NCBI GenBank assembly: GCA_965224245.1
Contig: CBDCYW010000011.1
Location: forward strand, 1 to 13,778
Length of the DNA: 13,778 nucleotides
Direction of reading: 5' to 3'
Source of the DNA: Candidatus Eiseniibacteriota bacterium
GTDB lineage: Bacteria > Eisenbacteria > RBG-16-71-46 > CAZAMP01
Within the stretch, counting starts at the first letter, position 1, and each line of letters begins with the position of its first letter. The notes beneath the pieces were generated by a model. That model searched no databases and was not told the DNA's origin. It saw only the letters and a program-made list of their open reading frames with translations. This document shows, piece by piece, positions 1 to 13,778 of the stretch. Position numbers and translations under genes: made by a program.

Positions 1-2717
1 ATGTCCTTTCGGATCTTGATGAGTGCCTCGATGACTGCGGCCGAGTCGATGAGCCGGTTGTGGTACTTCTGGAGCGTCTCTTCGAGCATCTCCCGGAAGG
101 ACCGGGCTCGGGCAACGTTGTTCCGTGTCCTGAGCTTGATGGCGTCCCGGACGAGCTGCTCGAGGAGCTTAAGGCGAAGGTTCTCATGCGGCCTGTTCTT
201 GAAGGTCTGAAGGAACCCCTCATCGAGGATCGAGATGTCCGGCTTCTCGATCCCTGCGGCGCTGAAGATGTCGACCACGCCGGCGGTGTCCACGGTGTCG
301 TCGACGAGGTCCCGGACTGCACGGTCGAGCTCGCGCCGCGGCACGCTCTTTCCGGGGAGTGCTTTCGAGATCTGCTTCCGGACCCGCTGGTAGAAGATCA
401 CTTCGTCCGCGTGTTTCCGGCAGTCGTCGAGGTGCTTCACGAGAAGGAATGCGGAGGTGAGCCGTAGCTCGGCCTGGAGGAAGTGCGAGCGGAGCTCGTC
501 GTCCTCCGCGATGTGGCCATAAGCGAGCGCGTAGAGGTCCTCCATCTCGATTCGGCTCATGGTGCGCCACCCGGCGTAGTCCCCGCCCTCAGGCATGAGG
601 GCACGGACCTGCTCGAGGCACTCGAAGAAAAGCGGCCGGGCCGTGTCCTCGATGTCGGGTGCGGGCTCGCCGGAGCCGCCGCCCTTCGTGTAGCGGCTCG
701 TGGCTTCCTTCAGCTCATCGGCGATCCCGATGTAGTCCACAACGAGCCCATGGGGCTTGTCGCGGAAGACCCGGTTCACGCGGGAAATCGCTTGGATCAT
801 GCTGTGCCCGCGCATGGGCTTATCGACGTAAAGCGTGTGGAGACAAGGGATGTCAGTACCGGTGAGCCACATGTCGCAGACGATGACGATCTGGAGCGGG
901 TCCTCGTGGTCGATGAGACGCTGCTTGATGGCGTCCCGCTGGGCCTTGGTCGTGAGGTGCCCAGCTTCGCTCCATTCCGGGGGGTCCTCCGAGAGGTTCC
1001 CGGTCATGATGACCTTGACCTCGGGGCAGTTGGGGAGGGCCGTGAGTGCTTCGTAGAGCCTGACGCAGTTCTCCCGCGTCATGCAGACCACCATGGCTTT
1101 GCCCTTCAGGGTCTCGGTGCGGTCGAGGAAGTGAGCGAGGAGGTCCTCGGCGAGGTCGGCAAGTCGCTCCTTGGTGCCGGCCGCCCGGGCGAGTGCTGCC
1201 CAGCGGCTCTTTCGGCGCTCGAGCTCCGAGGGGTCATGCCCTTCGGCGAGCTCCGCAAGCGCGCCGTCGACGTCGGCTTGCTTCAAGTGGAGCTTCACCT
1301 GCCTTGCTGAGTAGTAGATCGGCACCGTGGCGCCGTCGTCCTGGGACTGCTTGATATCGTAGGTGTGGATCTGGTCCCCGAAGACCTCGTACGTGTCCGC
1401 AGCGCTGAAAGAGATGGGGGTCGCGGTGAACCCAAGGCGGCGTGCGTTCGGGAGAGCGTCTGCGAGGTAGCGTGCGTAGCCCTCTTTGAAGCCGTACTGC
1501 GAGCGGTGGGCCTCGTCGGCAATGATGAGGATATTGTCCCGCTCGGAAAGGACGGGGTGGGTGACCTCGCCCTCGTCGGTCTTAAGACGGAACTTCTCGA
1601 TGGTCGTGAAGATGACCTCCCCGCCTTCGGTCTTGAGGAGCTCCCGGAGGTCGTCCGTGCTCTCAGCCTGCTTCACCTCCCCGACGAGCGCCCGGGCAGC
1701 CACGAACTGGTCGTGGAGCTGGTCGTCCAGATCGGTCCGGTCGACCTGGATGACGAAAGAGGGATTCCCAAGGGTCTTCTCGCGCCGGAGAATCCCCACG
1801 AGGAAGAGCATGGAGAGCGACTTCCCGGAGCCTGTCGTGTGCCAGATGACACCCACCCGCTTGTCGCCCCCGTTTGTCATGGTGTCGAGGGTCTTCTCGA
1901 CGGCGAGGCGGACCGCAAAGTACTGGTGGTAGCGGGCTCCCTTCTTCGTGATGACGCCCTTCACCTCTTCGAAGACGATGAAGTTCCGGATGTACTCAAG
2001 GAGCCGGTCCTTCCGGAAGAGACCCTCGACAAGCGTCTTCATGGTTCCGGTGGTTGTCGGTTCGATGGCGAAGCCGTCGATGGAGACCCACGGCGCAAAC
2101 CACTCCATGGAGGAGGTCCACATGCCGTGGAGAGTCGTCACCCCGTCGGAAACGACGGTGATGGCGTTGTAGTCAAAGATCTGCGGGATGTCGTTCCGGT
2201 AGTGCTGGATCTGGTTGAAGGCGTCGTCGACGGTCGGCTTCTCCGAGTAGGGGTTCTTGAGCTCGAAGAGGACAAGGGGGAGCCCATTCACGAAGATGAT
2301 GACGTCCGGCCGGCGGTCATTCTGGGGGCCTCGGATAGGGAGCTGGTTCACGACAGCGATGTCGTTGTTCTGGGGGGCGTCCCAATCGACGGCGTAGATG
2401 TGTTCGTGGGTGACCCGGCCATCGGGAAGCTCGACCCGGAGCTCGAGGCCGCGGGTGAGAATGCGGTGGAAGTTCATGTTCCGGCGGAGTGTGTCGGCGC
2501 CCTCGGGGCGGGCGAACTGCCGGACGGCGTCGTCGAGTGCGGCCTCGGGAAGGTCGGGATAGCGACGGGTTAGGTAGGTTCGCAGGGTGGGGCGGAGGAC
2601 CACTTCTTCGTGGTCGCGCGCCATCTCCTCGCCGTGCTCGTAGCGGTAAGCAAGGAGCTCGAGGCGCTCGATGGTCGTCAGCTCGAACTCGGTCTCAGTT
2701 CCTCGTTCGCGGCCCAT
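1..2717 (-). CDS. hsdR: Type I restriction enzyme R subunit (3' end truncated by window edge)
   Basis: Not in the ORF track because it has no stop inside the window. Manual translation from ATG at 2717 (2 nt after the hsdS stop) gives MGRERGTETEFELTTIERL..., with nuclease motif RPDVIIFVNGLPLVLFELKN, Walker A WHTTGSGKS, DEAH box (IIADEAHRSQY), GFTATP, DMWLTGTD and QAISRVNR. The frame is open to position 1. Confidence 0.96.
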   Translation of the reverse strand, partial: MGRERGTETEFELTTIERLELLAYRYEHGEEMARDHEEVVLRPTLRTYLTRRYPDLPEAALDDAVRQFARPEGADTLRRNMNFHRILTRGLELRVELPDGRVTHEHIYAVDWDAPQNNDIAVVNQLPIRGPQNDRRPDVIIFVNGLPLVLFELKNPYSEKPTVDDAFNQIQHYRNDIPQIFDYNAITVVSDGVTTLHGMWTSSMEWFAPWVSIDGFAIEPTTTGTMKTLVEGLFRKDRLLEYIRNFIVFEEVKGVITKKGARYHQYFAVRLAVEKTLDTMTNGGDKRVGVIWHTTGSGKSLSMLFLVGILRREKTLGNPSFVIQVDRTDLDDQLHDQFVAARALVGEVKQAESTDDLRELLKTEGGEVIFTTIEKFRLKTDEGEVTHPVLSERDNILIIADEAHRSQYGFKEGYARYLADALPNARRLGFTATPISFSAADTYEVFGDQIHTYDIKQSQDDGATVPIYYSARQVKLHLKQADVDGALAELAEGHDPSELERRKSRWAALARAAGTKERLADLAEDLLAHFLDRTETLKGKAMVVCMTRENCVRLYEALTALPNCPEVKVIMTGNLSEDPPEWSEAGHLTTKAQRDAIKQRLIDHEDPLQIVIVCDMWLTGTDIPCLHTLYVDKPMRGHSMIQAISRVNRVFRDKPHGLVVDYIGIADELKEATSRYTKGGGSGEPAPDIEDTARPLFFECLEQVRALMPEGGDYAGWRTMSRIEMEDLYALAYGHIAEDDELRSHFLQAELRLTSAFLLVKHLDDCRKHADEVIFYQRVRKQISKALPGKSVPRRELDRAVRDLVDDTVDTAGVVDIFSAAGIEKPDISILDEGFLQTFKNRPHENLRLKLLEQLVRDAIKLRTRNNVARARSFREMLEETLQKYHNRLIDSAAVIEALIKIRKD

Positions 2718-2719
2718 GC

Positions 2720-4045
2720 TCAGACGGCCTCCTCAACGAGGTTTTCGGCCTGGCGGACCCGGATATCGCCGGAGAGAAGGCGCGGAAGTAAAGTCCTGTG
2801 AAGCGCCGTCAGGGTGCGCGTTTCCGCGGCGTGGGTTGCGAAGCAGTCCTCAACGCGACGTGCAACGCGAGTGAGATGGACCCGGATTCGATCGGGGGGA
2901 ATCGCGAAAGCGTACCGGGCCATGTCATGCCATGATGTTCGGGGTTGGCGTGTCCCCCCAGCCGTCCCGTCAGCGTAGTCCACGAACTCTCGGCTTGAGA
3001 GCGTGCCAAGCAAGAGTCCAAAGTCGTGTTCCTGCTTGGCGGCGACAACCACAACGTCGGTGGAACAGATCCCGTCACAGAGAGCTACGCCGACCTTGTG
3101 GAAGTACGGACGCAGCTTGCCGAACAGTACTTCTCCACGCCGGAACTCCCACTTGGCGCTAGTGACTGCGGCTGCCTCGCCCCAAGCGTCCAGCACGATA
3201 GATCCCTTGGGTAGATGCTCCAAGCCAATGTATGGCGTACTGGGCACGACCGCGGTGGGGTCCGCCTTGCGCCGCGGGTTATCGGCGATGTCTCCGACAG
3301 TACCCGGTTCCCACCCAGCCGGCACGGGCCCGAGCGTGGAGTCCTCGAAGCGATCGGGGAACAGCGCCGCCACCTCGTCAGTCAGGTGGGGGGGGCGGCG
3401 ACCCTCGCTCTTCGCTACGACAGGGTCGAAGTCTACGAACCAGGACCGGAAAATGGCTTGGCACGTCGTTTCGAGTGTCTCGTTAAGCTGCCGATTGGCC
3501 TCGATCTTGTCGTCCAGGGCTCCGAGTACGGACGCAATCGCGCGCTGTGTGGTGATCGGAGGGACGACGACGGGTAACTGGCGTTGTGCTGTGATGCCAA
3601 GGTACGCTCGCGTCGATCCTGAGTTTGCCCAGGCGTCGAATAGAGCTTGGAAGTCGTACGAGTCGAAATAGATACGAAGATAGCTCGGATTGAGGAACTC
3701 GTGGTCCAGCACACGGTAGTACGTAACCTGCGGTGTGAGTACAAGATAGTCTTCCGGTATCTCTCCGACAATGGCTGTGCGCCCAATGGTTCCTTTGTGA
3801 GAGATCAGCACGTCTCCAGTCCTGGCAAACCCCTTGCGGAGCCCCTCGGCTTGCTCAGGAGAAATTCGAGCACATCCGCGAAGGTCTACTCTTCCGCCCT
3901 TGAGGTCGGATGCCATGATGAATGGCACCCCGGTGGGGACAAAGTCGCTGGCCTTGGGATGTATTTCTCCATGGTTGCCGTCCATCGGTGGAGCGAGCAC
4001 ACCCTGGTCAACAAGCTGCTGGACGGTATAGGTAGAATCACTCAA
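2720..4045 (-). CDS. hsdS: Type I RM specificity subunit (two TRDs)
   Basis: 441 aa. TTG start overlaps the hsdM stop by 8 nt, with GAGGT upstream. Typical central conserved region PPITTQRAIASVLGALDDKIEANRQLNETLE...FPDRFEDSTLGPVPAGW and C-terminal LLPRLLSGDIRV. Lies between hsdM and hsdR. Confidence 0.96.
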   Translation of the reverse strand: MSDSTYTVQQLVDQGVLAPPMDGNHGEIHPKASDFVPTGVPFIMASDLKGGRVDLRGCARISPEQAEGLRKGFARTGDVLISHKGTIGRTAIVGEIPEDYLVLTPQVTYYRVLDHEFLNPSYLRIYFDSYDFQALFDAWANSGSTRAYLGITAQRQLPVVVPPITTQRAIASVLGALDDKIEANRQLNETLETTCQAIFRSWFVDFDPVVAKSEGRRPPHLTDEVAALFPDRFEDSTLGPVPAGWEPGTVGDIADNPRRKADPTAVVPSTPYIGLEHLPKGSIVLDAWGEAAAVTSAKWEFRRGEVLFGKLRPYFHKVGVALCDGICSTDVVVVAAKQEHDFGLLLGTLSSREFVDYADGTAGGTRQPRTSWHDMARYAFAIPPDRIRVHLTRVARRVEDCFATHAAETRTLTALHRTLLPRLLSGDIRVRQAENLVEEAV

Positions 4046-5651
4046 CGGTCGTTACCTCACCAAGTAATCTGCGGACCTCGGACTCGAGCCGGCGAGCATT
4101 GGTGAACTGTTCCTCGAGGCGCGTGAGAAGGACAGGGAAGCGCTCCTCAAAGGGATCGTCATCGTCGAGCGCCTCCTCGTTGCCGACGTAGCGTCCGGGC
4201 GTGAGAGCAAATCGGTGCTCGGCGATATCGTCGCGACTGGCTACCGAGGCAAAACCAAGAACTGCCTCTGGCACCTGCTCGTGCCTGAATGTTCTATAGA
4301 CGGCTGCGATTCGCTGGATTTCCTCGGGGGAGAGCGCCTTCTGTTTCCGCGAGCCCTCGATCAGGGTTCCCAGCTTGCGGCCGTCAATGAAGAGAACCTC
4401 GCCGTTACGTTTGCGATATCCGTGCGACCCGCCCCGATTCTTTGAAAGGAACCAAAGGGCACAAGGTATCTGAGTGTTCGCGAATAGCTGTCCGGAAAGC
4501 TGAACTACGCAGTCGACGCAGTCTGCGTCTAGCAGGGCTCTTCGAACGGCGAGGCGCGCGGTCTCCCCGTTCGAGAGCTCACCGGTCGCCATGACGAAGC
4601 CGGCCGTGCCGCCGTCCTTTAGGTGATGGAGAAAGTGAAGCATCCACATCGTGTTGGCATTGCGTGGCGCAAGCGGCATGCGTTCGTCCCCAATCCGGAG
4701 ACGGGGGTCCTTGTCCACGATGCGATCAGCACCCCAGCCCTCACTGCTCCTGGAGCCATCGTTGAAAGGCGGATTCGCGAGAATGTAGTCGGCTTGGAGG
4801 TCCGGGTGCTTGTCGTCGAAGTAGGAGTTCCCAGGCTCAATCTTGCCGTCGATGCCATGGATGAACATGTTCATCCGGCAAAGCCGGTAGGTGAAGTCGA
4901 TGCCCTCCTGGCCATAGAAGGAGAGGCGCCGATTGTGCTTCGTGAAGGCATCCGACTGAACGAACATGCCTCCGGATCCGCAGCAAGGATCGAACACGAC
5001 GCCCCGTTCGGGCTCGAGCATGGCGACGAGGAGGCGCACGATGCTGAGGGGCGTGTAGTACTGGCCACCTCGCTTCCCTTCTGAAGAAGCGAACTCCCCG
5101 ATGAAGTACTCGTAGACCCGGCCGATGAGGTCCTCACCTCCGTGGTCGTCTTTGAATGCGTCACGAGAGAAGAGGTTGATGAGGCCAGTCACGTTCTCTT
5201 TGGCGAGGTTCGAGCCAGCGTAGATCTTCGGAAACAATCCACGTAGGCGCTCCGGGTAGGCGTCTTCGAGGAGCTCCAGGATGTTGTCGAGCCGGATCTT
5301 GATGTCGTCGGCCTGGGCGTGCTTTCGAATGTTGTCCCAGCGGGCCTGCTCCGGGACGATGAAGGCACCGGCGCTTCGGTACTCATCCGGGTCCTCGAGG
5401 GCGTCGGGGTCCCCGTAGTAGTCGCTCTTCGGCTCCCGGACCAGGCCTTCGAGCTGGGAGCGCCGGCGTTCGTAGCGGAGGGAGAGGAAGCGAAGAAAGA
5501 TGAGGGGCAGCACGTAGCGCTTGTAGTCGGACGTGTCGATGGTGCCCCGGAGGTTCACCGCTGCTTCCCAGAGCTCCTTCAGGAGATCTGCGATGCCGTT
5601 GGACTTCGGGGTCTTCTTTCCTGCCTTCTTGGTGGTCTTTTTCTTCGCCAT
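4038..5651 (-). CDS. hsdM: Type I RM N6-adenine methyltransferase subunit
   Basis: 537 aa. N-terminal LWEAAVNLRG...YKRYVLPLIFLRFLS, then GQYYTP, SAM-binding FDPCCGSGGMF, catalytic ANPPFN, LFANTQIP and LTPGRYVG. GGAG upstream of the ATG. Confidence 0.97.
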   Translation of the reverse strand: MAKKKTTKKAGKKTPKSNGIADLLKELWEAAVNLRGTIDTSDYKRYVLPLIFLRFLSLRYERRRSQLEGLVREPKSDYYGDPDALEDPDEYRSAGAFIVPEQARWDNIRKHAQADDIKIRLDNILELLEDAYPERLRGLFPKIYAGSNLAKENVTGLINLFSRDAFKDDHGGEDLIGRVYEYFIGEFASSEGKRGGQYYTPLSIVRLLVAMLEPERGVVFDPCCGSGGMFVQSDAFTKHNRRLSFYGQEGIDFTYRLCRMNMFIHGIDGKIEPGNSYFDDKHPDLQADYILANPPFNDGSRSSEGWGADRIVDKDPRLRIGDERMPLAPRNANTMWMLHFLHHLKDGGTAGFVMATGELSNGETARLAVRRALLDADCVDCVVQLSGQLFANTQIPCALWFLSKNRGGSHGYRKRNGEVLFIDGRKLGTLIEGSRKQKALSPEEIQRIAAVYRTFRHEQVPEAVLGFASVASRDDIAEHRFALTPGRYVGNEEALDDDDPFEERFPVLLTRLEEQFTNARRLESEVRRLLGEVTTVE

Positions 5652-5718: not shown

Positions 5719-6826
5719 TCAAACTGGAACATCATGTGAGGCGCTCTCCTTCGTGGTACGTCTGCGCTTGTCGTAAATCTGGGTGGTGGTTACGTGCCGG
5801 TGGCCGAGAAGCTCCTGTACCTTCGTGATGTCCACGCCGGCATCGAGGAGAAGTGTTGCCGTCGTCGCCCGTAGGGAGTGCGGGGTGTAGACCCGCCAGC
5901 GGGTAGTGACTTCGACCGAGCCGTCGAGCTCTTTCGTCTCCTTCATCGCACCCGGGAGCTGGTCGAGGTAGCCCTGGACGATCCGGTACATGGAGGCGGG
6001 GGAGATGCGCTTCTTCCCAAGCTTCTCGCTCCTAGGGTTCAGCCGGGCGCGGAAGAGCGGCCCGTGCTCGATGCCGGCGACATCCATGTACTCCCGGATT
6101 GCCTCGGCCGCGGCGAAGTGAATCCCGATGGTCCGGTGCCGGTTGCCCTTCTCGTTCAGGCGAAGTGTGGCCTCCTCGCCGTCCGCGTGGAAGTCCGAGA
6201 CGTTGAGGCGGCAGCCTGTCCCGAGCCTGATTCCTGTATAGATGAAAATCTTCAGAATCGCCCGGTCCCTGGAAGGAATTGGGCCTTCGCCTCCGGGCAA
6301 CCCCATGAGCTGGCGGGCCCCGGGTGGCGGTGAGCGCTCGGCGTTCGTAGATCGGGTCCTGGGCGGCGCGGCTCACGAACTGCGCGTGGGCAGGGTTTGG
6401 GACGGTGATGGGCAGCCTGAGCTCGGCGGCGGCGCCGGCGAGGTACTTGAAGAAGCTCGAGACGGAGGAAACCCGGCGGTTCATGGTCTTCGGGGCGAGC
6501 TCGAGCTCGGCCATGTCGTCCCGCCAGGCGAGGACGTCGCCGACTGTGACCTGGAGCATCCGGAAGGACTCGTCCGGCCACCGGAACCCATCTGGCCACC
6601 GGCGCCCGAGGAACTCAACGAGGCTCATGACGTCCCGGCGGTACGCGCGCTGGGTGTGCGGGCTCTGGCGCCGGTGAACCCACTTCTCGAAGATGTCGGA
6701 GACCGACAGGTAGAAGCCTTCGACTCGCCGGCGGACTTCGGGGGTGTCCCGGCCGGCGAGGATCGGGGGCAACTCCTGGGCACTTCGGATAGCTGGCAAA
6801 CGGTCTGACAAGCGGTTCTCCCCCAT
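5719..6826 (-). pseudogene. Tyrosine recombinase (XerC/XerD/phage-integrase family) with a +1 frameshift at ~6318-6321; true pseudogene or sequencing error
   Basis: The upstream frame (from 6826) encodes the N-terminal SAM-like domain (QSPHTQRAYRRD...APKTMNRRVSSVSSFFKYL...NP). The downstream frame (ending 5719) has the catalytic set RDRAIL...TGIR, EKG, HSLRAT, LGH, TTQIY. Deleting one base of the CCCC run at 6318-6321 joins them as ...RALTATRARQLMGLP..., about 368 aa. Confidence 0.9.
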
Positions 6827-6842
6827 CGGTTTTTTCGGCTCC

Positions 6843-6878
6843 GACTATGCTTGATAACAAATTTTATCACTCACAGTC
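6843..6878. promoter_or_regulatory. Putative tyrosine-recombinase core site / autoregulatory operator (dif/loxP-like palindrome)
   Basis: GACTATGCTTGATAA-CAAATT-TTATCACTCACAGTC: 15-bp arms matching 12/15 as an inverted repeat around a 6-bp asymmetric spacer. It sits 16 bp upstream of the recombinase ATG and overlaps a minus-strand TTGACT (-35-like, 6875-6880). Confidence 0.7.
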
Positions 6879-6919
6879 AAGGCGGTGGGAGAGGCCCCAA
6901 GAAAAGCCATCGTTGGTGG

Positions 6920-6958
6920 AAAAAAACGGGGACCTCGACTTGAAGCCGTGGTCCCCGT
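6920..6958 (-). terminator. Intrinsic terminator downstream of the HTH-TPR gene
   Basis: Minus strand reads ACGGGGACCACGGC-TTCAA-GTCGAGGTCCCCGT followed by a T6 run: a GC-rich stem plus U-tract. Confidence 0.85.
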
Positions 6959-6959
6959 C

Positions 6960-7025
6960 GGAAGAGCCAGAGTCTCTATCGGAGTCAGTTCTTCCTTCGG
7001 CTCTTCCAGGAAGAAGGAGTCTCTA
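6960..7025. repeat. Interleaved inverted and direct repeats between the regulator stop codon and the terminator
   Basis: Inverted repeat GGAAGAGCC (6960-6968) / GGCTCTTCC (6999-7007) with a 30-bp spacer; inverted repeat TTCTTCCT (6989-6996) / AGGAAGAA (7008-7015); direct repeat GAGTCTCTA (6970-6978 and 7017-7025). Confidence 0.7.
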
Positions 7026-8165
7026 GTTGCAGGACTTGGCGAGAGCGGTCGACGTTCCGCCGTCCAGGAGCATCATGCCCATGGCGGCGAGTGCGACGAC
7101 AAAGACGAGGACAATCGTCGGGTGCTCTCCGAGGAAGAGCATGGCCTTGTAAACGAGGTTGCGGAAACCGAACTTTTCGGCCGCTTCCTTAGCCTTGCGC
7201 GCCAGGTCCTTGTCGTCGGTGAGGTCGGCCAGAAAGTAGGTCGACCAGGCGAAGGTCTCCGGGTCGAGCAGCTCGTTCGGGCGCGACGGATTCTGGCCAG
7301 GGCCGTACTTCTCGATGAGTTCTTTGAGCACCTTCTCGTCCTTCTTGGCATTGGCCAGGTACATGGAAATCCAGTCCGCGAGGTTGTGGTTCCCCAGCTC
7401 CGCGTAGGCCTTGCGGCCCGCCCTGAGGTTTCTGGCGGCTTTCACCAGCTCACCACGTTCCGCCTGAACACGGCCACGAACGAAGTACGCGTGTGCGCGC
7501 ACCTCGGGGAGCAAATCCTTGGGACGCTTGAGGAGGCTGTCGGTCAGGGCTTCGGCGATGTCGGCCCGGTGGAGCTCGAGATGCAGCTCGGCGAGGTTGA
7601 CTGTCACCTTGGCGCGAATCTCCCTCGCTTCGACGGAGTTATCACCATTGAGGAACGAGAGAGCGTTGTGGAAGTGAGCCTCGGCCGGACTAGCGAAGCG
7701 GTTGCCGACCTCGAAAATCCCGAGGTCCTTGGCCCGATTCCCCATGAGGAGCGCCGCGTATGCCTTCTCGAGAGGGGTCTTGGCGAGCTGCTCGAGTGCC
7801 CGGAGGATGTACCAAGCATCTCGGGAGAGGCCCGCATCCATCTGGCTCTTGGCCTTAGCCTTTGCCGACTCGAAGGACGGGAGGTTCAACTTCGCTGCGA
7901 AGTCGATATCGTGGGTCCCGCCCAGGATGCAGTTCCACAAGAAGCGCTCCTCCTCCGGGTACATGCCCGGAGAGACGACGCGGAGCCAATTGGCAAGCGT
8001 CCGGAGTCGTGGGCTCCGGGTCCCGTTCTCCATCTGCGACAGGAACCCCTGACTCACCCCCATCGCGTCTGCGACGGTCGTCTGGAGGGCGCCCTGGCTC
8101 TCCAGGTTGATGCGAGCCTTCTTGAGCGTCCCGCCAGCCTGTTCGTTCCAGATGACCTCGTGCAT
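7023..8165 (-). CDS. XRE-family HTH + TPR-like helical-repeat regulator with a C-terminal hydrophobic, signal-peptide-like tail
   Basis: 380 aa, with strong SD AGGAGGT before the ATG. HTH: LQTTVADAMGVSQGFLSQMENGTRSPRLRTL. TPR-like helices: AKVTVNLAELHLELHRADIAEAL and AHAYFVRGRVQAERGELVKAARNLRAGRKAYAELGN. C-terminus: TIVLVFVVALAAMGMMLLDGGTSTALAKSCN. Confidence 0.85.
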   Translation of the reverse strand: MHEVIWNEQAGGTLKKARINLESQGALQTTVADAMGVSQGFLSQMENGTRSPRLRTLANWLRVVSPGMYPEEERFLWNCILGGTHDIDFAAKLNLPSFESAKAKAKSQMDAGLSRDAWYILRALEQLAKTPLEKAYAALLMGNRAKDLGIFEVGNRFASPAEAHFHNALSFLNGDNSVEAREIRAKVTVNLAELHLELHRADIAEALTDSLLKRPKDLLPEVRAHAYFVRGRVQAERGELVKAARNLRAGRKAYAELGNHNLADWISMYLANAKKDEKVLKELIEKYGPGQNPSRPNELLDPETFAWSTYFLADLTDDKDLARKAKEAAEKFGFRNLVYKAMLFLGEHPTIVLVFVVALAAMGMMLLDGGTSTALAKSCN

Positions 8166-8417
8166 GGCGACCTCCTGGTCTTAACGCCCCATCTCTAGAG
8201 ACCGAGCTTAGACACTCACCCGCTTCGAGGACAACAGCGGCCGTATTGCAAAAGGGATAACGAGGGCCATCGCAAACCGTGCAACTGCAATGTGCGCGGC
8301 AATGTCCGGTGCTATGTAACTCGTTATTTGGCAGTTATTTACGGGACTTCATGAAGTCGTCACCGTGCCCTCGTTGACCGACCGGTCGACGGGAAATCAA
8401 CTCACGGAGGTGACAAC
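8166..8417. promoter_or_regulatory. Divergent control region with palindromes and short repeats
   Basis: Non-coding and more AT-rich than the flanking genes. Perfect palindrome GACTTCATGAAGTC (8345-8358); GCAATGT twice (8287, 8299); GTTATTT twice; ATTGCA/TGCAAT inverted pair (8245-8250 / 8286-8291); SD sequences pointing outward at both ends. Confidence 0.55.
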
Positions 8418-8963
8418 ATGAAGTTCTTGGTCGGATGGAAGGGCGCGGCGCTTGGCCTGGCGCTCGCGGTTACTGCGGGGGCGGTGCCGGGGATGGCGAT
8501 GGGCTGGGGGCCCGACGAGCTCAGCCCCTCGGACTCGACGCTCGCGGCCGAAACGGCACAGGCGTTTCCGGTGCAGATGGGGTTCGTGCACCTGACGGGT
8601 CAGTTCGAGAAGGTCGAAGAGGCTTGGGCGTCCCGAGACACGACGGCGGCCCGCGCTGCGTATGACAAGATGACGTTGTGCGCGCATGAGCTGGTAACGA
8701 CACTCGAGGTGCTGTCGGGTAGCCGGCTCTCCGGTCGGCGGGCCGCGCTCGTGCGTTGGGTCGCGTCGAGGAACAGCATCCCGCCCGGGCTCATGCTGAT
8801 TGCAGATGTCTTTCCGGAAGCAGAGAGTTCGACGGAGCCCGAGACCACGGACGATGAGGGTGGGTCGACGCTCGGGCGTATCGCAGGGACGGTGCGGGAT
8901 GTCGGCGGGGTCCTGGTGGCGGCAGCAGGGGTTCGCGCAGCTTGGGAGGCGCTCTTCAAGTAG
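8418..8963 (+). CDS. Hypothetical exported protein (Sec signal peptide)
   Basis: 181 aa. SD GGAGG 7 nt before the ATG. MKFLVGWKGAALGLALAVTAGA signal-like N-terminus, helical core, acidic linker and hydrophobic/amphipathic C-terminus. Followed by a hairpin. Confidence 0.75.
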   Translation: MKFLVGWKGAALGLALAVTAGAVPGMAMGWGPDELSPSDSTLAAETAQAFPVQMGFVHLTGQFEKVEEAWASRDTTAARAAYDKMTLCAHELVTTLEVLSGSRLSGRRAALVRWVASRNSIPPGLMLIADVFPEAESSTEPETTDDEGGSTLGRIAGTVRDVGGVLVAAAGVRAAWEALFK

Positions 8964-8971
8964 CCGAGTCG

Positions 8972-8998
8972 CGGGGACGGTGTGCGAGGCCGTCCCCG
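8972..8998 (+). terminator. GC-rich hairpin after the plus-strand gene (possible terminator or 3' stabiliser)
   Basis: CGGGGACGG (8972-8980) pairs with CCGTCCCCG (8990-8998), 8 nt after the TAG. No U-tract. Confidence 0.5.
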
Positions 8999-9045
8999 TC
9001 ACCCCCAGCCACTTCAACGGTGGGCGTACGCATTCTAGGGGCAAC

Positions 9046-9079
9046 AAGAAACGGCCCGCCGACCGAAGTCGACGGGCCG
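9046..9079 (-). terminator. Intrinsic terminator for the two small minus-strand genes
   Basis: Minus strand reads CGGCCCGTCGAC-TTCG-GTCGGCGGGCCG-TTTCTT: 12-bp stem, C(UUCG)G tetraloop and U-rich tail. Confidence 0.85.
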
Positions 9080-9106
9080 CGTCTCGCGCTGCGTTCGGGG
9101 TGGAGA

Positions 9107-9355
9107 CTAGTAGCCGCCGCCGTCGAACATGTCGTTGACCTGGTCGTGGACCGAGATGGTCTGACCCTGCTTGAGGCCCGGAATCTCGGTGGTGACGTGC
9201 CATCCGGGGTTCACCGTCTCGGGGTGAAGCGGCCGGACGTAGCCGAAGTGGCTCGTTCCAGCGTAGCCGCCGACCGGGCTGATTTCGGGCTGCGGGTTGA
9301 ACATCTGGTTGAAGGCGAAGGTCGCCTCCGGGCTAGGGTTGAACTCGTTGTTCAT
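9107..9355 (-). CDS. Small hypothetical protein (82 aa)
   Basis: SD AGGAG upstream. Strong host-like codon bias (all Asn AAC, Phe TTC, Tyr TAC, Asp GAC). Followed by a terminator. Internal FNPSPE/FNPQPE duplication. Confidence 0.8.
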   Translation of the reverse strand: MNNEFNPSPEATFAFNQMFNPQPEISPVGGYAGTSHFGYVRPLHPETVNPGWHVTTEIPGLKQGQTISVHDQVNDMFDGGGY

Positions 9356-9376: not shown

Positions 9377-9403
9377 GACGGGGGTCGGAGGCCGACCCCC
9401 GTC
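9377..9403. other. Perfect intergenic hairpin
   Basis: GACGGGGGTCGG-AGG-CCGACCCCCGTC: a 12-bp perfect stem between the two small genes, 7 nt upstream of the second gene's SD. Confidence 0.7.
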
Positions 9404-9819: not shown

Positions 9820-11202
9820 CTAAACGACAACTTCGTAGGTGTTTATCTCGTGCCAGTACCGATGGCGGTCGTCGCTGGCAACGATGAGTTCTCGCTCGTC
9901 GATTAGGGCGCGCAAGTAGTCTTCGTGCGCCCAGACAACGGCGACGCGAAACGGCACGCGCTTGGGTTTCCCAAGTGGACGTAGCTCTGCCCCCGCCCGT
10001 TCGGCTGCCTGGTGGGCCTCCGGAGCCGCGAGGTGAGAGAACTGGATGAAGACGCGCTTTGCGAGCTTGTGCCCGTCGTGGATTACCTCGGAGAGGAGCT
10101 CCGTGCCGGCGACGGTTGATGACATACCGACAGATTCGAAACCGGACAGGAGCGGCAGGTACGGTGGGTTGCACAGCAGTACATCGTAGTGCGGGACCTG
10201 GCCGGCGTGGGTCCAGTTCAATCCGAGCCCCAGGTGTGCGTGCACGCTTGGGCGATTGGTGCGGTGAGCGTTACGCGCCCAGTTCGCCACAGAATAGAGA
10301 AGTGGCGTGAGCAGCCAGTCGGCGAAATCGAGCCGTTGAATGCTCGAGCTCTGGGCAGCGAATGCCGTGCCCAGAACACCTGTGCCGCAACCCACGTCGA
10401 CTACCGACTCTGCTCGGCCAAAGGCTCCATGCTGCTTGAGCTTATCGAGCATCGAGAAAGTGTCTACGGAGGGAGGCCAGAATTCAGGGCCCCGGCGCCA
10501 TAGGAAAGACAGCCTGTTCCACCGGATGTCGACGAGGCCATTCGAGAATGCGGCAAGTAGCTCTTTCTTCGATTCGAACGAGTGAACCGGGCAAGGGACT
10601 GGCTCGCCCATCGGCTCCTTGGGATTAAGGTCGGGAGTATCGCAGTGACAGTCCCAAAGGAGCTGTGGAGATTCGATTGGTAGCTCGAAACCATCACCGC
10701 GGAAGGTGAGCTTTCGGAACCCGGCCGACACCTGAATGACAAGGTCGGGACTGGGAAGCGCGTTGGCGAGCTCCTCAACGGAGGCGGGCTGGTCTATTTG
10801 GTTCAGGAGCTCATCGACCGAGAAACCGGTCTTCACAAGGCCAGCAGTGACGAGATGCTGATACTCACGCATGAGTAGATGCTGGGCGAGATGCCGGTGG
10901 TCGCGTAGCGCCTGAACTATCAGCTGGTCTGTTTCGCTGACCGCACGGAGCAGCTTATCCCACTTGGTCGTAGAACTCGCTGGTGGGTTTTTCAGGAGCA
11001 AGTAAGAGACCTCGCACCCGAGGGCGCGTGCTACTCGGACGATGGTGGAGTCTCGGTAAGATGACTTCTTCGCCTTCTCGATGTTCCAAATGGTCCGAAC
11101 GTCCTTGAGTCCAGCTTTGGCAGCGAGCTCTTCCTGAGTTAAGCCCTTTTCGTATCGAGCTTCCTTTACTCGTTCCGCCAGCGTTTGAGCATCAACCTGC
11201 AT
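9820..11202 (-). CDS. XRE-HTH fused to a class I SAM-dependent methyltransferase (HemK/PrmC/MTS-like, NPPY)
   Basis: 460 aa. N-terminal Cro/C1 HTH (RVKEARYEKGLTQEELAAKAGL...IWNIEK...VRVARALGCEVSYLL). MTase motifs FWPPSVDT, VVDVGCGTGVLG and YDVLLCNPPYLP. GGAGAGG upstream. Confidence 0.88.
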   Translation of the reverse strand: MQVDAQTLAERVKEARYEKGLTQEELAAKAGLKDVRTIWNIEKAKKSSYRDSTIVRVARALGCEVSYLLLKNPPASSTTKWDKLLRAVSETDQLIVQALRDHRHLAQHLLMREYQHLVTAGLVKTGFSVDELLNQIDQPASVEELANALPSPDLVIQVSAGFRKLTFRGDGFELPIESPQLLWDCHCDTPDLNPKEPMGEPVPCPVHSFESKKELLAAFSNGLVDIRWNRLSFLWRRGPEFWPPSVDTFSMLDKLKQHGAFGRAESVVDVGCGTGVLGTAFAAQSSSIQRLDFADWLLTPLLYSVANWARNAHRTNRPSVHAHLGLGLNWTHAGQVPHYDVLLCNPPYLPLLSGFESVGMSSTVAGTELLSEVIHDGHKLAKRVFIQFSHLAAPEAHQAAERAGAELRPLGKPKRVPFRVAVVWAHEDYLRALIDERELIVASDDRHRYWHEINTYEVVV

Positions 11203-11223: not shown

Positions 11224-13050
11224 TTAGAATTCGTCAGGTGCGGTAGCCGCCGCCGTAGCAAACGCCGGGGACTGGTACCAGAGATTGACAGAGTGACCGG
11301 TAACGCCATCGTACCGGTGGCCCTTCACCATCAACCGGATTCTCCCGCCGTCTGGACCTTCCCAGATGGTCTCGGTAGTTCGGCCCGGAGGCGGAAGCGC
11401 GTCTCTTGTTTCCTCGCCCCGCTGCGGAGGGCCGTATCGAGACGTGAGCTCGGACCGAAGCCCGAAGTAGAGGTCGTTGACCTTCTTCTTGAAGCGCTGA
11501 GCCTCGTACCCACCTGTCACGATGTAGTCGCGGAGGTGCAGTCCTTGAAGACCCCCGCGGGGGTCGAAGATGAGGCCTGCGCTCATTTCGTGACCGAGCA
11601 TGTCGGGCCAGTCGCGCACCCCTGAGCGCCGCCAGCCGTCGGGGCAGTCGTCCTCTTTGCCATCACCTGCCTTGCACTCGCTGGTCTTTCTTCCGACGCG
11701 ACCATCGAAGGTTTCGGCCGTGGACTTCGTTTCGTCGTGGGACATGCCCCAGCGAAACCCGCGGGGTGGTGTGACGGCCTGGTCGGCGAGCTGGCTGAGT
11801 CTCTCTTCCTCCCGCGCAATCGCCTCACTACCACCGGTGAGGCATTCGAGGACGGTTCTGTAGGCCTCGGCTCTCGTCCTAAGGTCTGGTGCCTCTGCGT
11901 CGAGCCAGCCGCTAAGGGTGCTGATGGCCTCTCGGTAGCCGGTCGGTAGGAAGCGCCCGTATGCAAGGCGCGTGCGGATGTTGTTGAGCGCCTCGCCGGC
12001 GCGGTTGCTCTCCGCGATGAAGCCGGCTGGGGTCCAAGCGCTCGCGAGGTCGAGGCTCCCATCTCCGCATTCGAGGGAGATGGAACTAGCCGCAAGGAGG
12101 AAGTCGGAACCGCAAACGGATTGCTCAGCCGCCTTTACGAAGTCTTCGCAGGAGTGTGCCTCCAGCACGACGCGGACCCGCTCAATCTCGGCCGCGGCTG
12201 CCGTCGCTTGGGCAAAAAGGGCTGAAGCGCGCTCAGCCTGGGCGATGTCTGGCTGACGGGACTGGTCAAACCCGGCGGGCCGAATCTCCTCGATGTCCAG
12301 GTGGATTGGAATTCCGAAGTCGGCAAGGTCCGGAAAGAGCTTTCCGGGCTCGGGTTCGGGTAGCGACGCGGGCTTTGGCTTGGGCGGTGAGGCCGTCTTC
12401 CCGGGTTCCGGTTCCTCCTCAACGGGCTCGGGCTCTTCGTCCTCTCCCCCACCGAAGAGGTCCCGGAACTGAACGGACACGGTCTCCGTGAGAATCCGGA
12501 GGAAGCCGCGGTCGCGAGAGTTGTCTTCAGTTTCTTCCTCCGGCTCCTCGTGAGCGGGCTCAGGTGCCGGCTCGGGGGTGGGTTCTGGCTCCTCGACCTT
12601 CGCGCGGCGAGCCACTCGCCGGCGCGGGCTCTCGATGACTCGACCGGTGACGGACACGAGCTCACCGCGAGAGAGTGACTCCAAGTGTGCCATGAATTCG
12701 GGAGTCAGGCGGGAGCGCTGCTCCACGAACCGGATGGCGTGTGGGGTGCCGTCGACGCGGCCTTGGAGGTTCACTTGCCCCACAACGCAGAGGCCAAGAA
12801 CCGGGTCGTCCACCGCTCGAAGAAAGCTCAGTTGCCCGAGCCAGCCTTCGAGCATGGTCCCCTTGGGAATGGTGGAACCGAAAGCCTGAAGCTCCTCGGC
12901 GCGATTCGCGCGGCGAAGCTCGTTATCGGCTGCGGCCTGGTACTCCGCATAGGTCTCGTGCCACTTCGTCTCCCACTCGGCCTGATTGACGTTGGCGCGG
13001 GCTGCGAGCGGAATGGACAGTGCGACGAGAATGAGCGCGGTTCTAATCAT
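11224..13050 (-). CDS. Hypothetical exported multidomain protein (608 aa), probably separate from the upstream coupling protein
   Basis: Internal ATG at 13050 of the 843-aa ORF, with AGGA 6 nt upstream, begins a typical signal peptide MIRTALILVALSIPLAARA|N. Then an OB-fold-like segment (LSRGELVSVTGRV), a Pro/Glu-rich tract, a helical region and a C-terminal alpha/beta domain (GFRWGMSHDE...LTSRYGPP...WEG). Confidence 0.7.
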   Translation of the reverse strand: MIRTALILVALSIPLAARANVNQAEWETKWHETYAEYQAAADNELRRANRAEELQAFGSTIPKGTMLEGWLGQLSFLRAVDDPVLGLCVVGQVNLQGRVDGTPHAIRFVEQRSRLTPEFMAHLESLSRGELVSVTGRVIESPRRRVARRAKVEEPEPTPEPAPEPAHEEPEEETEDNSRDRGFLRILTETVSVQFRDLFGGGEDEEPEPVEEEPEPGKTASPPKPKPASLPEPEPGKLFPDLADFGIPIHLDIEEIRPAGFDQSRQPDIAQAERASALFAQATAAAAEIERVRVVLEAHSCEDFVKAAEQSVCGSDFLLAASSISLECGDGSLDLASAWTPAGFIAESNRAGEALNNIRTRLAYGRFLPTGYREAISTLSGWLDAEAPDLRTRAEAYRTVLECLTGGSEAIAREEERLSQLADQAVTPPRGFRWGMSHDETKSTAETFDGRVGRKTSECKAGDGKEDDCPDGWRRSGVRDWPDMLGHEMSAGLIFDPRGGLQGLHLRDYIVTGGYEAQRFKKKVNDLYFGLRSELTSRYGPPQRGEETRDALPPPGRTTETIWEGPDGGRIRLMVKGHRYDGVTGHSVNLWYQSPAFATAAATAPDEF

Positions 13051-13778
13051 CTCGGTTCCTATGTTTCCTGTACCTGGGCTGCTCCGGTTCGGGTGGTGTT
13101 GTCGCTCTCTGGGTTTCGGCTGCTTGGCGGTCTCATCCGGCGGCTGCGGGTCCAGTCCAAGCCGGGCTCGTTCGTCGGCGGTCCACGGGCTTAGTGGTAC
13201 CTCGGCAACGGGGCGGATTCCGAAGTCGCGCTTGTCCCGGTCGCGAGGGCTCGGAACGTCGCGTCGTATCTTGCTCTCGGCCAGGTCGAAGCGCCAGGGT
13301 CGGTCGACCGCCTCGGAAGCGAAGAACCCGCGCAGTCGCCCGCCCTTATTTCTCGCAAGGAGCATTTCGGTTCGGACCACGGCCTCGCGCGAGAACTGTT
13401 CGGACCGACTCTCCTCGAGGTTCATGCGGCTGTATCGCTTCGCCTTCCGCCGAACCTCCCGCTCGCCGAAGAACTTCGAGACCCACTCTGCGGTCTCGGG
13501 ATTGTTTAGGCTGAGGTAACCCTGGTTCCCGACGCTGTTTAGGATGCTGCGCGTCTGGTGTTCGCCGTAGATGTCGTAGAGCGCCTCGATGTCTTGAAAG
13601 CCCAAAAACGTGCATGCGCCATAGCTTCTGCCGGCGCGAATGAGCTCGGGGAGGAGCGGGAGCTTTCCAACGTTGGATACCTCGTCGAGGACAACCCAGG
13701 AGCGCGCGGGGTTTGAGTCCTCGTCGTGCTCGCTGTCTTCGAGAAGCCGCTTCATGATGAGCGTGAGGAGTGCCTTGT
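13051..13778 (-). CDS. Type IV coupling protein (TrwB/TraD/VirD4-like), C-terminal part; 5' end outside the window, no in-frame stop before the next gene
   Basis: Walker B WVVLDEVSNVGKLP, then GRSYGACTFLGFQDIEALYDIYG, SILNSVGNQ and PETAEWVSKFFGEREV, the hallmark C-terminal motifs of coupling proteins. The frame stays open to the window edge (KALLTLIMKRLL). Confidence 0.88.

Follow-up and report, generated by a model that had tools for sequence, protein, structure and literature searches.

A putative membrane-tethered HTH-TPR regulator with a signal-peptide-like C-terminus on a small contig of a Candidatus Eiseniibacteriota bacterium

The contig CBDCYW010000011.1 of a Candidatus Eiseniibacteriota bacterium (assembly GCA_965224245.1; genome G000 and contig C12 below) was analysed over its entire length of 13,778 bp, which we call the window. 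It carries a type I restriction-modification (R-M) operon, a tyrosine recombinase, a coupling-protein fragment and, between the latter two, an open reading frame (ORF) for a 380-residue regulator designated P0001 (Table 1). In this protein an XRE-type helix-turn-helix (HTH) and a tetratricopeptide repeat (TPR) domain are followed by a predicted membrane helix, an Ala-x-Ala (AxA) motif and a terminal KSCN, an architecture that is real, conserved and very rare, and that varies two known kinds of protein, the RRNPP-like receptor and the membrane-tethered regulator. RRNPP-type signalling, as described from Bacillota and their mobile elements, takes two genes, one for the propeptide and one for a receptor that is soluble. 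A preliminary description of the same DNA saw in P0001 an RRNPP/AimR-like receptor apparently fused to its own propeptide, an interpretation that is partly supported by the analysis reported here.

The regulator and its C-terminal module

The P0001 frame, whose translation terminates in GEHPTIVLVFVVALAAMGMMLLDGGTSTALAKSCN, has a codon-position GC of 0.64/0.41/0.83, and its final 35 codons stay coding-like (0.63/0.46/0.83). The antisense ORF of 437 aa on the plus strand (6885..8198) was rejected as the true gene on its codon-position GC (0.80/0.42/0.63) and on homology, and has no Pfam match. The in-frame Met 39 codons from the end, from which the preliminary description let the propeptide-like segment begin, exists (M342) but is missing in the homologues P0002 and P0003; since AAGG 3 nt upstream is all the Shine-Dalgarno-like sequence there and the Met is not conserved, an internal translation start at this position was rejected. 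No adjacent small propeptide gene was found for P0001 in the window, and none has space after it because a terminator-like hairpin lies 65 nt past the stop.

Pfam HTH_3 matches P0001 at E 1.9e-6 (28.2 bits against a cut-off of 23), and a profile of the P0001 family matched HTH chains of HipB, C.BclI and the ICEBs1 ImmR type in the PDB. Pfam TPR_12 is found in 9/13 family members, and the family profile matched kinesin-light-chain and consensus TPR chains at E 1e-7 to 4.5e-12. By sequence this part is generic (consensus TPR E 4.5e-12, kinesin light chain 1e-9); Rap was matched more weakly than the generic TPR chains, at E 7.7e-5 to 8e-4, and PlcR through the HTH alone. The AlphaFold2 (AF2) model from the single sequence is poor, with a predicted local distance difference test (pLDDT) of 54, and that made with a 13-row family alignment reaches a pLDDT of 83.4 and a predicted template modelling score (pTM) of 0.71. 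It is all-helical, comprising the HTH, paired helices at aa 98-345, a helix at aa 349-367 and a tail of pLDDT <50. In a Foldseek search of the PDB, 10/10 matches at E<=1e-3 were AimR, PlcR or the Rap protein of phage phi3T, and the structures nearest to the modelled TPR domain are Rap, NprR, AimR and PlcR. The NCBIfam model lysogeny_AimR scores P0001 at 17.7 bits against a cut-off of 70 and covers aa 21-86 (the HTH) only, which falls short of curated RRNPP family membership; the PHROGs and PADLOC scans gave HTH-level matches only. Matches in the ESM Atlas were confined to generic HTH+TPR clusters (from Chloroflexota, Acidobacteriota, Planctomycetota and Actinomycetota), regulators of this kind being widespread across phyla.

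Like RRNPP receptors, P0001 has a TPR-type domain of about 5-9 repeats and an N-terminal HTH (HTH_3 above cut-off), whereas those receptors are soluble and belong to Bacillota or their mobile elements; P0001 has a predicted membrane helix, and its host has Omp85 and PEP-CTERM. On the modelled fold, P0001 resembles an RRNPP-type HTH-TPR receptor, and it cannot be shown to belong to any RRNPP family. The preliminary assignment to RRNPP/AimR-like receptors holds for the fold, by the Foldseek matches to AimR, PlcR and Rap, and not for sequence-level membership. The TPR-like helices, which it had read from the translation, are borne out by the TPR_12 and TPR-chain matches and by the all-helical model, and the XRE HTH, the 18-residue helix, DGGTST, ALA and KSCN are all present where it had placed them (translation, HTH_3 and Kyte-Doolittle profile).

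The highest 17-residue Kyte-Doolittle (KD) window of P0001, aa 351-367, has a mean of 2.94, and 13 residues follow the helix. This C-terminus has the n-h-c pattern of a signal peptide with small residues at -3 and -1 (ALA, aa 374-376), and departs from the usual form in its C-terminal position and in an h-region of 18 residues against about 7-15. Three other explanations of the tail were considered and rejected. The lipobox consensus is [LVI][ASTVI][GAS]C, and A-K-S precede Cys379, so lipoprotein processing has no lipobox to act on. Sortase, exosortase and rhombosortase tags have their motif before the helix, the reverse of the order here. Double-glycine leaders are amphipathic, and the part preceding DGG is a predicted membrane helix.

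A rare family with conserved tails, and a split relative

A word-based search retrieved the close homologues P0002 (64% identity) and P0003 (55%), and 1.84 billion representatives, scanned exhaustively with HMMER, yielded 16 matches at E<=1e-3, 11 of which are real relatives with 27-39% identity (P0004 to P0013 and the fragment P0017). Every family cluster holds 1-3 sequences. A profile scan of the host phylum covered 206 genomes, among them G000 and one unpublished genome, G072, which has an HTH-level match only; full-length copies were found in G000 alone, which has two, P0001 and P0007, and 178/206 genomes gave HTH-only or TPR-only matches. P0007 is a chromosomal paralog (C1:4596461-4597684, 408 aa, 29% identity to P0001) with the same layout of helix, AAA and 13-residue tail; it is flanked by a PEP-CTERM protein and a PLD-like exported protein, an ordinary chromosomal context. 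In the class of G206, which holds the Ignavibacteriales metagenome-assembled genome encoding P0013, 2/285 genomes gave matches, and one more member, P0022, was recovered. Searches with the family alignment and with a TPR+tail alignment gave no members beyond P0022 among the matches listed. DNA and protein searches of a plasmid collection returned no family match; genome-contig searches with family alignments returned 24 pattern matches and no relative with one alignment and the P0013 locus only with another; a metagenome-contig search with the second of these alignments returned the P0010 locus only, and viral-contig searches with both returned no members. Judged from these sequence searches, the family is very rare. 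It is not strictly tied to mobile elements, because the P0013 and P0010 loci, like that of P0007, lack such a setting.

A C-terminal hydrophobic 17-mer of KD>=1.9, our criterion for a hydrophobic tail, is present in 12 of the 15 relatives examined (P0001-5, 7, 9-13 and 17). The other three, P0006, P0008 and P0022, end directly after the TPR domain; they do not group together in a tree of 14 members, whose deep nodes are weak (51/55) and in which P0008 joins the P0001-5 clade at 93/95. The 12 tailed members share a common order of basic residues, a hydrophobic stretch of 14-23 residues, often a Pro or Gly/Ser about 6 residues ahead of the AxA, a small-x-small motif and usually a Lys, and in 9/12 of them K/R are commoner in the 15 residues before the helix than in those after it. 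The hydrophobic stretch is 14-15 residues long in P0012 and P0013. Representative termini, with a hyphen after the motif, are ...SLPTQAQA-MPP... (P0004), ...VAPHSASA-RPR... (P0005), ...ALPIATAWA-KSGLEKIPM (P0012), ...ALPSLAWA-VGAWEF (P0013), ...WAGDAAA-KGLVKIYGDGLRY (P0007) and ...TSTAAA-HICPIDW (P0017). What follows the motif is unrelated between subfamilies (KSCN, KGLVKIYGDGLRY, KDLM, KSGLEKIPM, VGAWEF, HICPIDW), and the exported "mature" part would range from 4 to 78 residues across the family.

An automatic rule, demanding a strict AxA within 12 residues after the best hydrophobic window, is satisfied by 8/12 sequences, or 7/10 lineages; P0013 is among those it misses, its AWA straddling the window edge. 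Among the host's own ORFs, 524/3413 hydrophobic segments (15.4%) and 25/245 C-terminal ones (10.2%) satisfy the same rule, and the binomial probability of 7/10 against the 15.4% background is 1.6e-4. Because the lineages are kin, this value reflects conservation of the motif amid otherwise unalignable tails and not independent origin. Among P0001-3, 2/18 positions are invariant in the h-region, 119/255 in the TPR domain and 6/6 in LAKSCN, and D368 and G369 are unchanged; fully invariant seven-residue windows number 5/374 over the whole protein. Two stretches are shared by the otherwise diverged 78-residue tails of P0004 and P0005, a short motif in the middle and FSDNGPE at the very C-terminus; the latter parallels those propeptides that have their active part at the C-terminus. 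The invariant LAKSCN and the conserved FSDNGPE, with tails unrelated between subfamilies, form a pattern that a specific peptide or a docking element would be expected to show and a passive stub would not. Sequence comparison indicates that the signal-peptide-like tail is a real, conserved trait of the family that exceeds chance.

Conservation of this kind bears on the proposal that the hydrophobic C-terminus never enters a membrane and instead folds into the concave TPR groove as an auto-inhibitory pseudo-ligand, or drives oligomerisation. RRNPP-type TPR grooves do bind hydrophobic peptides, and the separate hydrophobic product of the split relative described below could bind in trans. Passages of PMC3087755 also record a predicted tail-anchored TetR regulator, SCO4008, that proved soluble. 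We nevertheless regard the proposal as very improbable: a KD mean of 2.94 over 17 residues far exceeds that of soluble helices, AF2 gives the helix a pLDDT of 56-59 with no confident packing, the h-region, which a specific ligand would be expected to conserve, is the least conserved part of the protein, and the flanking positive charges and the AxA suit a membrane topology.

The receptor and the tail are found as separate genes in one relative. In genome G243 (locus L035) the receptor ORF 1471..2472 (P0022, 333 aa) closes at TAG TGA, immediately past the TPR domain; the two stops are followed by GAGGAG, 6 nt and the ATG of a hydrophobic ORF of 40 codons in the same frame (2488..2610), which encodes MNSLIWRIIGATTGERSCLILRTVASVAIAVVLMDKGGFL. 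The family profile aligns through both stops and reaches profile position 347. The first terminator-like hairpin at the locus (2641-2667) lies 3' of the small ORF, giving the order of receptor, small ORF and terminator that is the canonical RRNPP layout. As far as the alignment tells, the G243 pair is a split form of the fused gene, the two forms differing by a stop codon. These comparisons, which the preliminary description had proposed as checks, went in its favour: helix, AxA and a short tail of variable sequence recur in the homologues, one of which has the tail as a gene of its own. Downstream of the split cassette (L035:2700-3250), repeats translate to near-identical peptide strings in several ORFs and are probably a short interspersed repeat.

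The same data can be set against the main alternative, that P0001 is a plain membrane-tethered one-component regulator whose helix only anchors it, whose TPR domain responds to a ligand or partner in the cytoplasm or near the membrane, and whose tail is passive or serves for docking or stability, no peptide signal being made. Single-pass HTH regulators in the membrane are common; the HTH is the most frequent DNA-binding domain of such regulators, and 56% of them are single-pass (PMC10269533). The generic TPR sequence, the tail that AF2 leaves undocked from the TPR domain and the anchor-length h-regions (18 residues in P0001, 22-23 in P0010 and P0011) agree with such a tether. It leaves unexplained why the AxA recurs in 7/10 lineages against a background of 15%, why the anchor changes between the close homologues and LAKSCN does not, why only the far end of the 78-aa tails is constant between P0004 and P0005, and why the G243 relative has the hydrophobic module as its own ORF with a Shine-Dalgarno sequence; three members, moreover, have no anchor at all. 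We consider a plain tether possible, though on the unlikely side.

Genomic setting and host

Table 1. Features of the 13,778-bp window, those of P0001 first
Feature	Position	Strand	Basis or remark
P0001 ORF, 380 aa + stop: XRE-HTH, TPR domain, hydrophobic helix, AxA, KSCN	7023..8165	-	translation, codon-position GC
Shine-Dalgarno AGGAGG for P0001	8171..8176	-	6 nt 5' of ATG at 8165
XRE-type HTH, aa 23-60	7986..8099	-	Pfam HTH_3; profile matches to HTH chains
TPR domain, aa 91-345, putative cytoplasmic sensor part	7131..7895	-	Pfam, PDB profile matches, AF2
Hydrophobic h-region / predicted membrane helix, aa 350-367, TIVLVFVVALAAMGMMLL	7065..7118	-	Kyte-Doolittle
c-region-like spacer DGGTSTALA, aa 368-376	7038..7064	-	last three residues form the AxA motif ALA (aa 374-376)
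Terminal tetrapeptide KSCN, aa 377-380	7026..7037	-	LAKSCN invariant in P0001-3
Intrinsic-terminator-like hairpin (16-nt arms) + T-run	6919..6958	-	65 nt past P0001 stop
Divergent intergenic region between P0001 and the 181-aa ORF; candidate operators	8166..8417		palindrome and repeats
181-aa orphan ORF, signal-peptide-like N-terminus, divergent from P0001	8418..8963	+	GC at third codon positions (GC3) 0.80
Two orphan ORFs, 79 and 82 aa	9438..9677 and 9107..9355	-	GC3 0.89 and 0.90
HTH-methyltransferase, 460 aa: XRE HTH + small-domain methyltransferase	9820..11202	-	weak PADLOC matches mad2, CapH, RmrA
T4 coupling-protein (TrwB/TraD/VirD4) fragment	11224..13755	-	match aa 13-129 only; N-terminus cut by contig end
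Tyrosine recombinase, frameshifted	5719..6826	-	two frames
Type I R-M operon hsdM, hsdS, hsdR, complete-looking	3..5651	-	hsdR runs off contig end

The setting of P0001 is mobile-element-like, with a tyrosine recombinase, a T4 coupling protein and a type I R-M system nearby. The window is the whole of contig C12 in a 6.9-Mb genome and has 62.4% GC against 69.1% in the 6.45-Mb main contig, in line with the mobile element in a high-GC host that the preliminary description had supposed. Beside the main contig, G000 has 26 small contigs (2.8-74 kb) of 57-66% GC, except C20 with 69.0%; these are probably a fragmented pool of plasmid or island sequence. RRNPP receptors control the transfer of ICEBs1 and pLS20, according to passages of PMC9765709.

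The tyrosine recombinase is read in two frames, with the SAM-like N-domain in 6032..6844 and the catalytic domain in 5719..6372, overlapping around 6330-6372; this single frameshift marks a pseudogene or else stems from an assembly error. A promoter-like pair, TTGACT...TATCAA, stands ahead of it at about 6848-6880. Upstream of P0001, the divergent region holds a perfect palindrome, ACTTCATGAAGT, at 8346-8357 with a 2-mismatch copy at 8413-8424, a recurrence that 5/200 shuffles equal with 2 or more matches, and an 18-nt inverted repeat (8257-8274 / 8310-8327); both are candidate operators. The 181-aa ORF on its other side matches no family of Pfam, PHROGs or PADLOC and is without a paralog elsewhere in the genome; it is a possible regulatory target of P0001. 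Overlapping it, an Arg-rich ORF of 268 aa (8397-9203, minus strand, GC3 0.65) is probably spurious. The 79- and 82-aa ORFs have no family match; a perfect 12-bp hairpin (9377-9403) lies between them, and a terminator-like hairpin with a 13-bp stem occurs at 9051-9080. The roughly 700 residues after the coupling-protein match have no Pfam or PADLOC match.

The host is a diderm with Omp85 (3 strong matches), and it encodes Peptidase_S26 (3 loci), SBP_bac_5 (4) and Peptidase_M50 (4), the machinery that the mechanism proposed below would require.

A possible fused receptor and propeptide

P0001 is like the RRNPP/RRNPPA receptors (in AimR-AimP, PlcR-PapR, NprR-NprX, Rgg-SHP and PrgX-PrgQ) and Rap of Rap-Phr in combining an XRE-type HTH with a TPR sensor of similar size, and like them it stands in a mobile-element-like setting beside recombination and transfer genes. 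The Phr, PapR, NprX and AimP propeptides consist of a signal-peptide-like module and a short C-terminal peptide, as does the P0001 tail. P0001 differs in that the propeptide-like module lies inside the receptor ORF, by which the receptor itself would be membrane-anchored, and further in its diderm host outside Bacillota, its lack of sequence-level membership and a putative peptide of 4 residues. The words "fused", "fusion" and "transmembrane" do not occur in the main texts of the RRNPP surveys PMC10075063 and PMC9765709, and a search of open-access full texts found neither a receptor fused to its propeptide nor an RRNPP-like receptor anchored in the membrane.

Among membrane-bound regulators, the ToxR, TcpP and CadC proteins surveyed in PMC10269533 likewise join a DNA-binding domain to a single helix with the N-terminus inside, the helix of P0001 being predicted. 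Their DNA-binding domain is a winged helix and their sensor lies outside the membrane, whereas P0001 has an XRE-type domain, a putatively cytoplasmic TPR sensor and about 13 residues past the helix, too few for an extracytoplasmic sensor of the ToxR/CadC type; the main text of that survey has no occurrence of XRE, TPR or tail-anchored. P0001 also resembles the bacterial tail-anchored proteins of PMC3087755 in having no signal at the N-terminus and just one hydrophobic helix, situated in the final ~30 residues. The passages of that paper mention no HTH-TPR member, and the tail anchors described in them, unlike P0001, have no conserved AxA and conserved, putatively exported tail after the helix. 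With Sec signal peptides cut by signal peptidase I the P0001 family shares the n-h-c order, a helix breaker near -6 and small residues at -3 and -1; the module of P0001 differs in standing C-terminally, behind a 345-residue cytoplasmic protein.

It is tentatively proposed, with a confidence somewhat short of even for the chain as a whole, that P0001 is the tail-anchored HTH-TPR regulator of a mobile element and carries an exported propeptide of its own in the same chain, a fused version of the two-gene cassette of HTH-TPR receptor and small hydrophobic propeptide. Its last ~35 residues would be an export module built like a Sec signal peptide, after which comes KSCN. A folded N-terminal part of 345 residues cannot pass through the membrane, so the helix would be expected to form a tail anchor in N-in/C-out orientation, with DGGTSTALA-KSCN in the periplasm. 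Signal peptidase I would then cut after [A/V]-L-A and free KSCN (about 450 Da), or an S41-type C-terminal processing protease might cut the tail instead; the size of KSCN would suit porins and uptake of the Opp/Dpp type. A cut after ALA leaves the helix on the receptor, which disagrees with the preliminary suggestion that this cleavage itself might free the receptor from the membrane; release would require an additional intramembrane protease. The receptor could accordingly remain tethered by its helix, or an M50 site-2 protease could then release it. The re-imported peptide would bind the groove of the TPR domain and set the activity of the HTH, with the divergent promoter region (8166-8417) and perhaps the adjoining integrase as putative targets.

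The remnant left after such a cleavage would resemble the substrates of RseP, which clears signal-peptide remnants (passages of PMC8144685 and PMC10470546); in the latter, site-2 proteases act on helices of type II, exclude substrates with large periplasmic parts by a size filter and clear cleaved signal peptides. P0001 might on this basis be controlled by regulated intramembrane proteolysis: it would be inactive at the membrane until a periplasmic protease (signal peptidase, S41 or DegS-like) cut the tail on cue and an M50 site-2 protease freed the HTH-TPR part, the peptide being a by-product. The predicted N-in/C-out topology with a 13-residue stub suits the type II substrates and PDZ size filter of PMC10470546, the host has 4 Peptidase_M50 matches, and the conserved AxA and tail could serve as a site-1 recognition element. 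Such a scheme is decidedly unlikely, since signal peptidase I is constitutive and would leave release unregulated, a 13-residue stub may require no site-1 cut, the window has no linked protease gene, and a split gene as in G243 would be senseless for a tether because the receptor there has no anchor.

Several points weigh against the fused receptor and propeptide as well. Its host is diderm, and to our knowledge RRNPP systems have not been described in diderms; RRNPP pheromones have 5-8 residues, and a tetrapeptide is shorter. An h-region of 18 residues with a c-region of 9 is long for a cleaved signal peptide and more anchor-like, as are the 22-23 hydrophobic residues of P0010 and P0011, and a strict AxA is missing in P0002 (VLA), P0009 (GWA) and P0010 (SVA). 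LAKSCN is identical at 55-64% receptor identity, unlike the divergence of RRNPP pherotypes, and in the AF2 monomer aa 368-380 have a pLDDT <50 and the tail is not docked on the TPR domain. The split form is known from one genome, and its small ORF lacks an AxA after the hydrophobic stretch; the family is too small for an analysis of co-variation between tail and groove. Finally, the soluble SCO4008 (PMC3087755) is a warning against predicted tail anchors.

If the tail serves as a tether only, P0001 would still be unusual among membrane-bound regulators, its sensor lying in the cytoplasm and a conserved stub of 13 residues outside. A receptor with its own export-and-cleavage module would, if true, be a new wiring of RRNPP logic, in which signal and receptor are fixed at equal amounts, receptor localisation is coupled to signal release, and peptide-controlled decisions of mobile elements extend to diderm bacteria. 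In its fullest form, which we find rather doubtful, this would be one-gene peptide communication: receptor and pheromone would be one polypeptide in a strict 1:1 ratio, the module would shed a tiny peptide (KSCN) and tether the receptor until a site-2 protease freed it, the peptide taken up again would set the receptor and so govern how a conjugative or integrative element behaves in its diderm host, and fused and split forms would interconvert by gain or loss of a stop codon. The ecological weight of the system is low because the family is very small, but the fused and split pair offers a simple, testable evolutionary route, and the family is a clean model for experiments.

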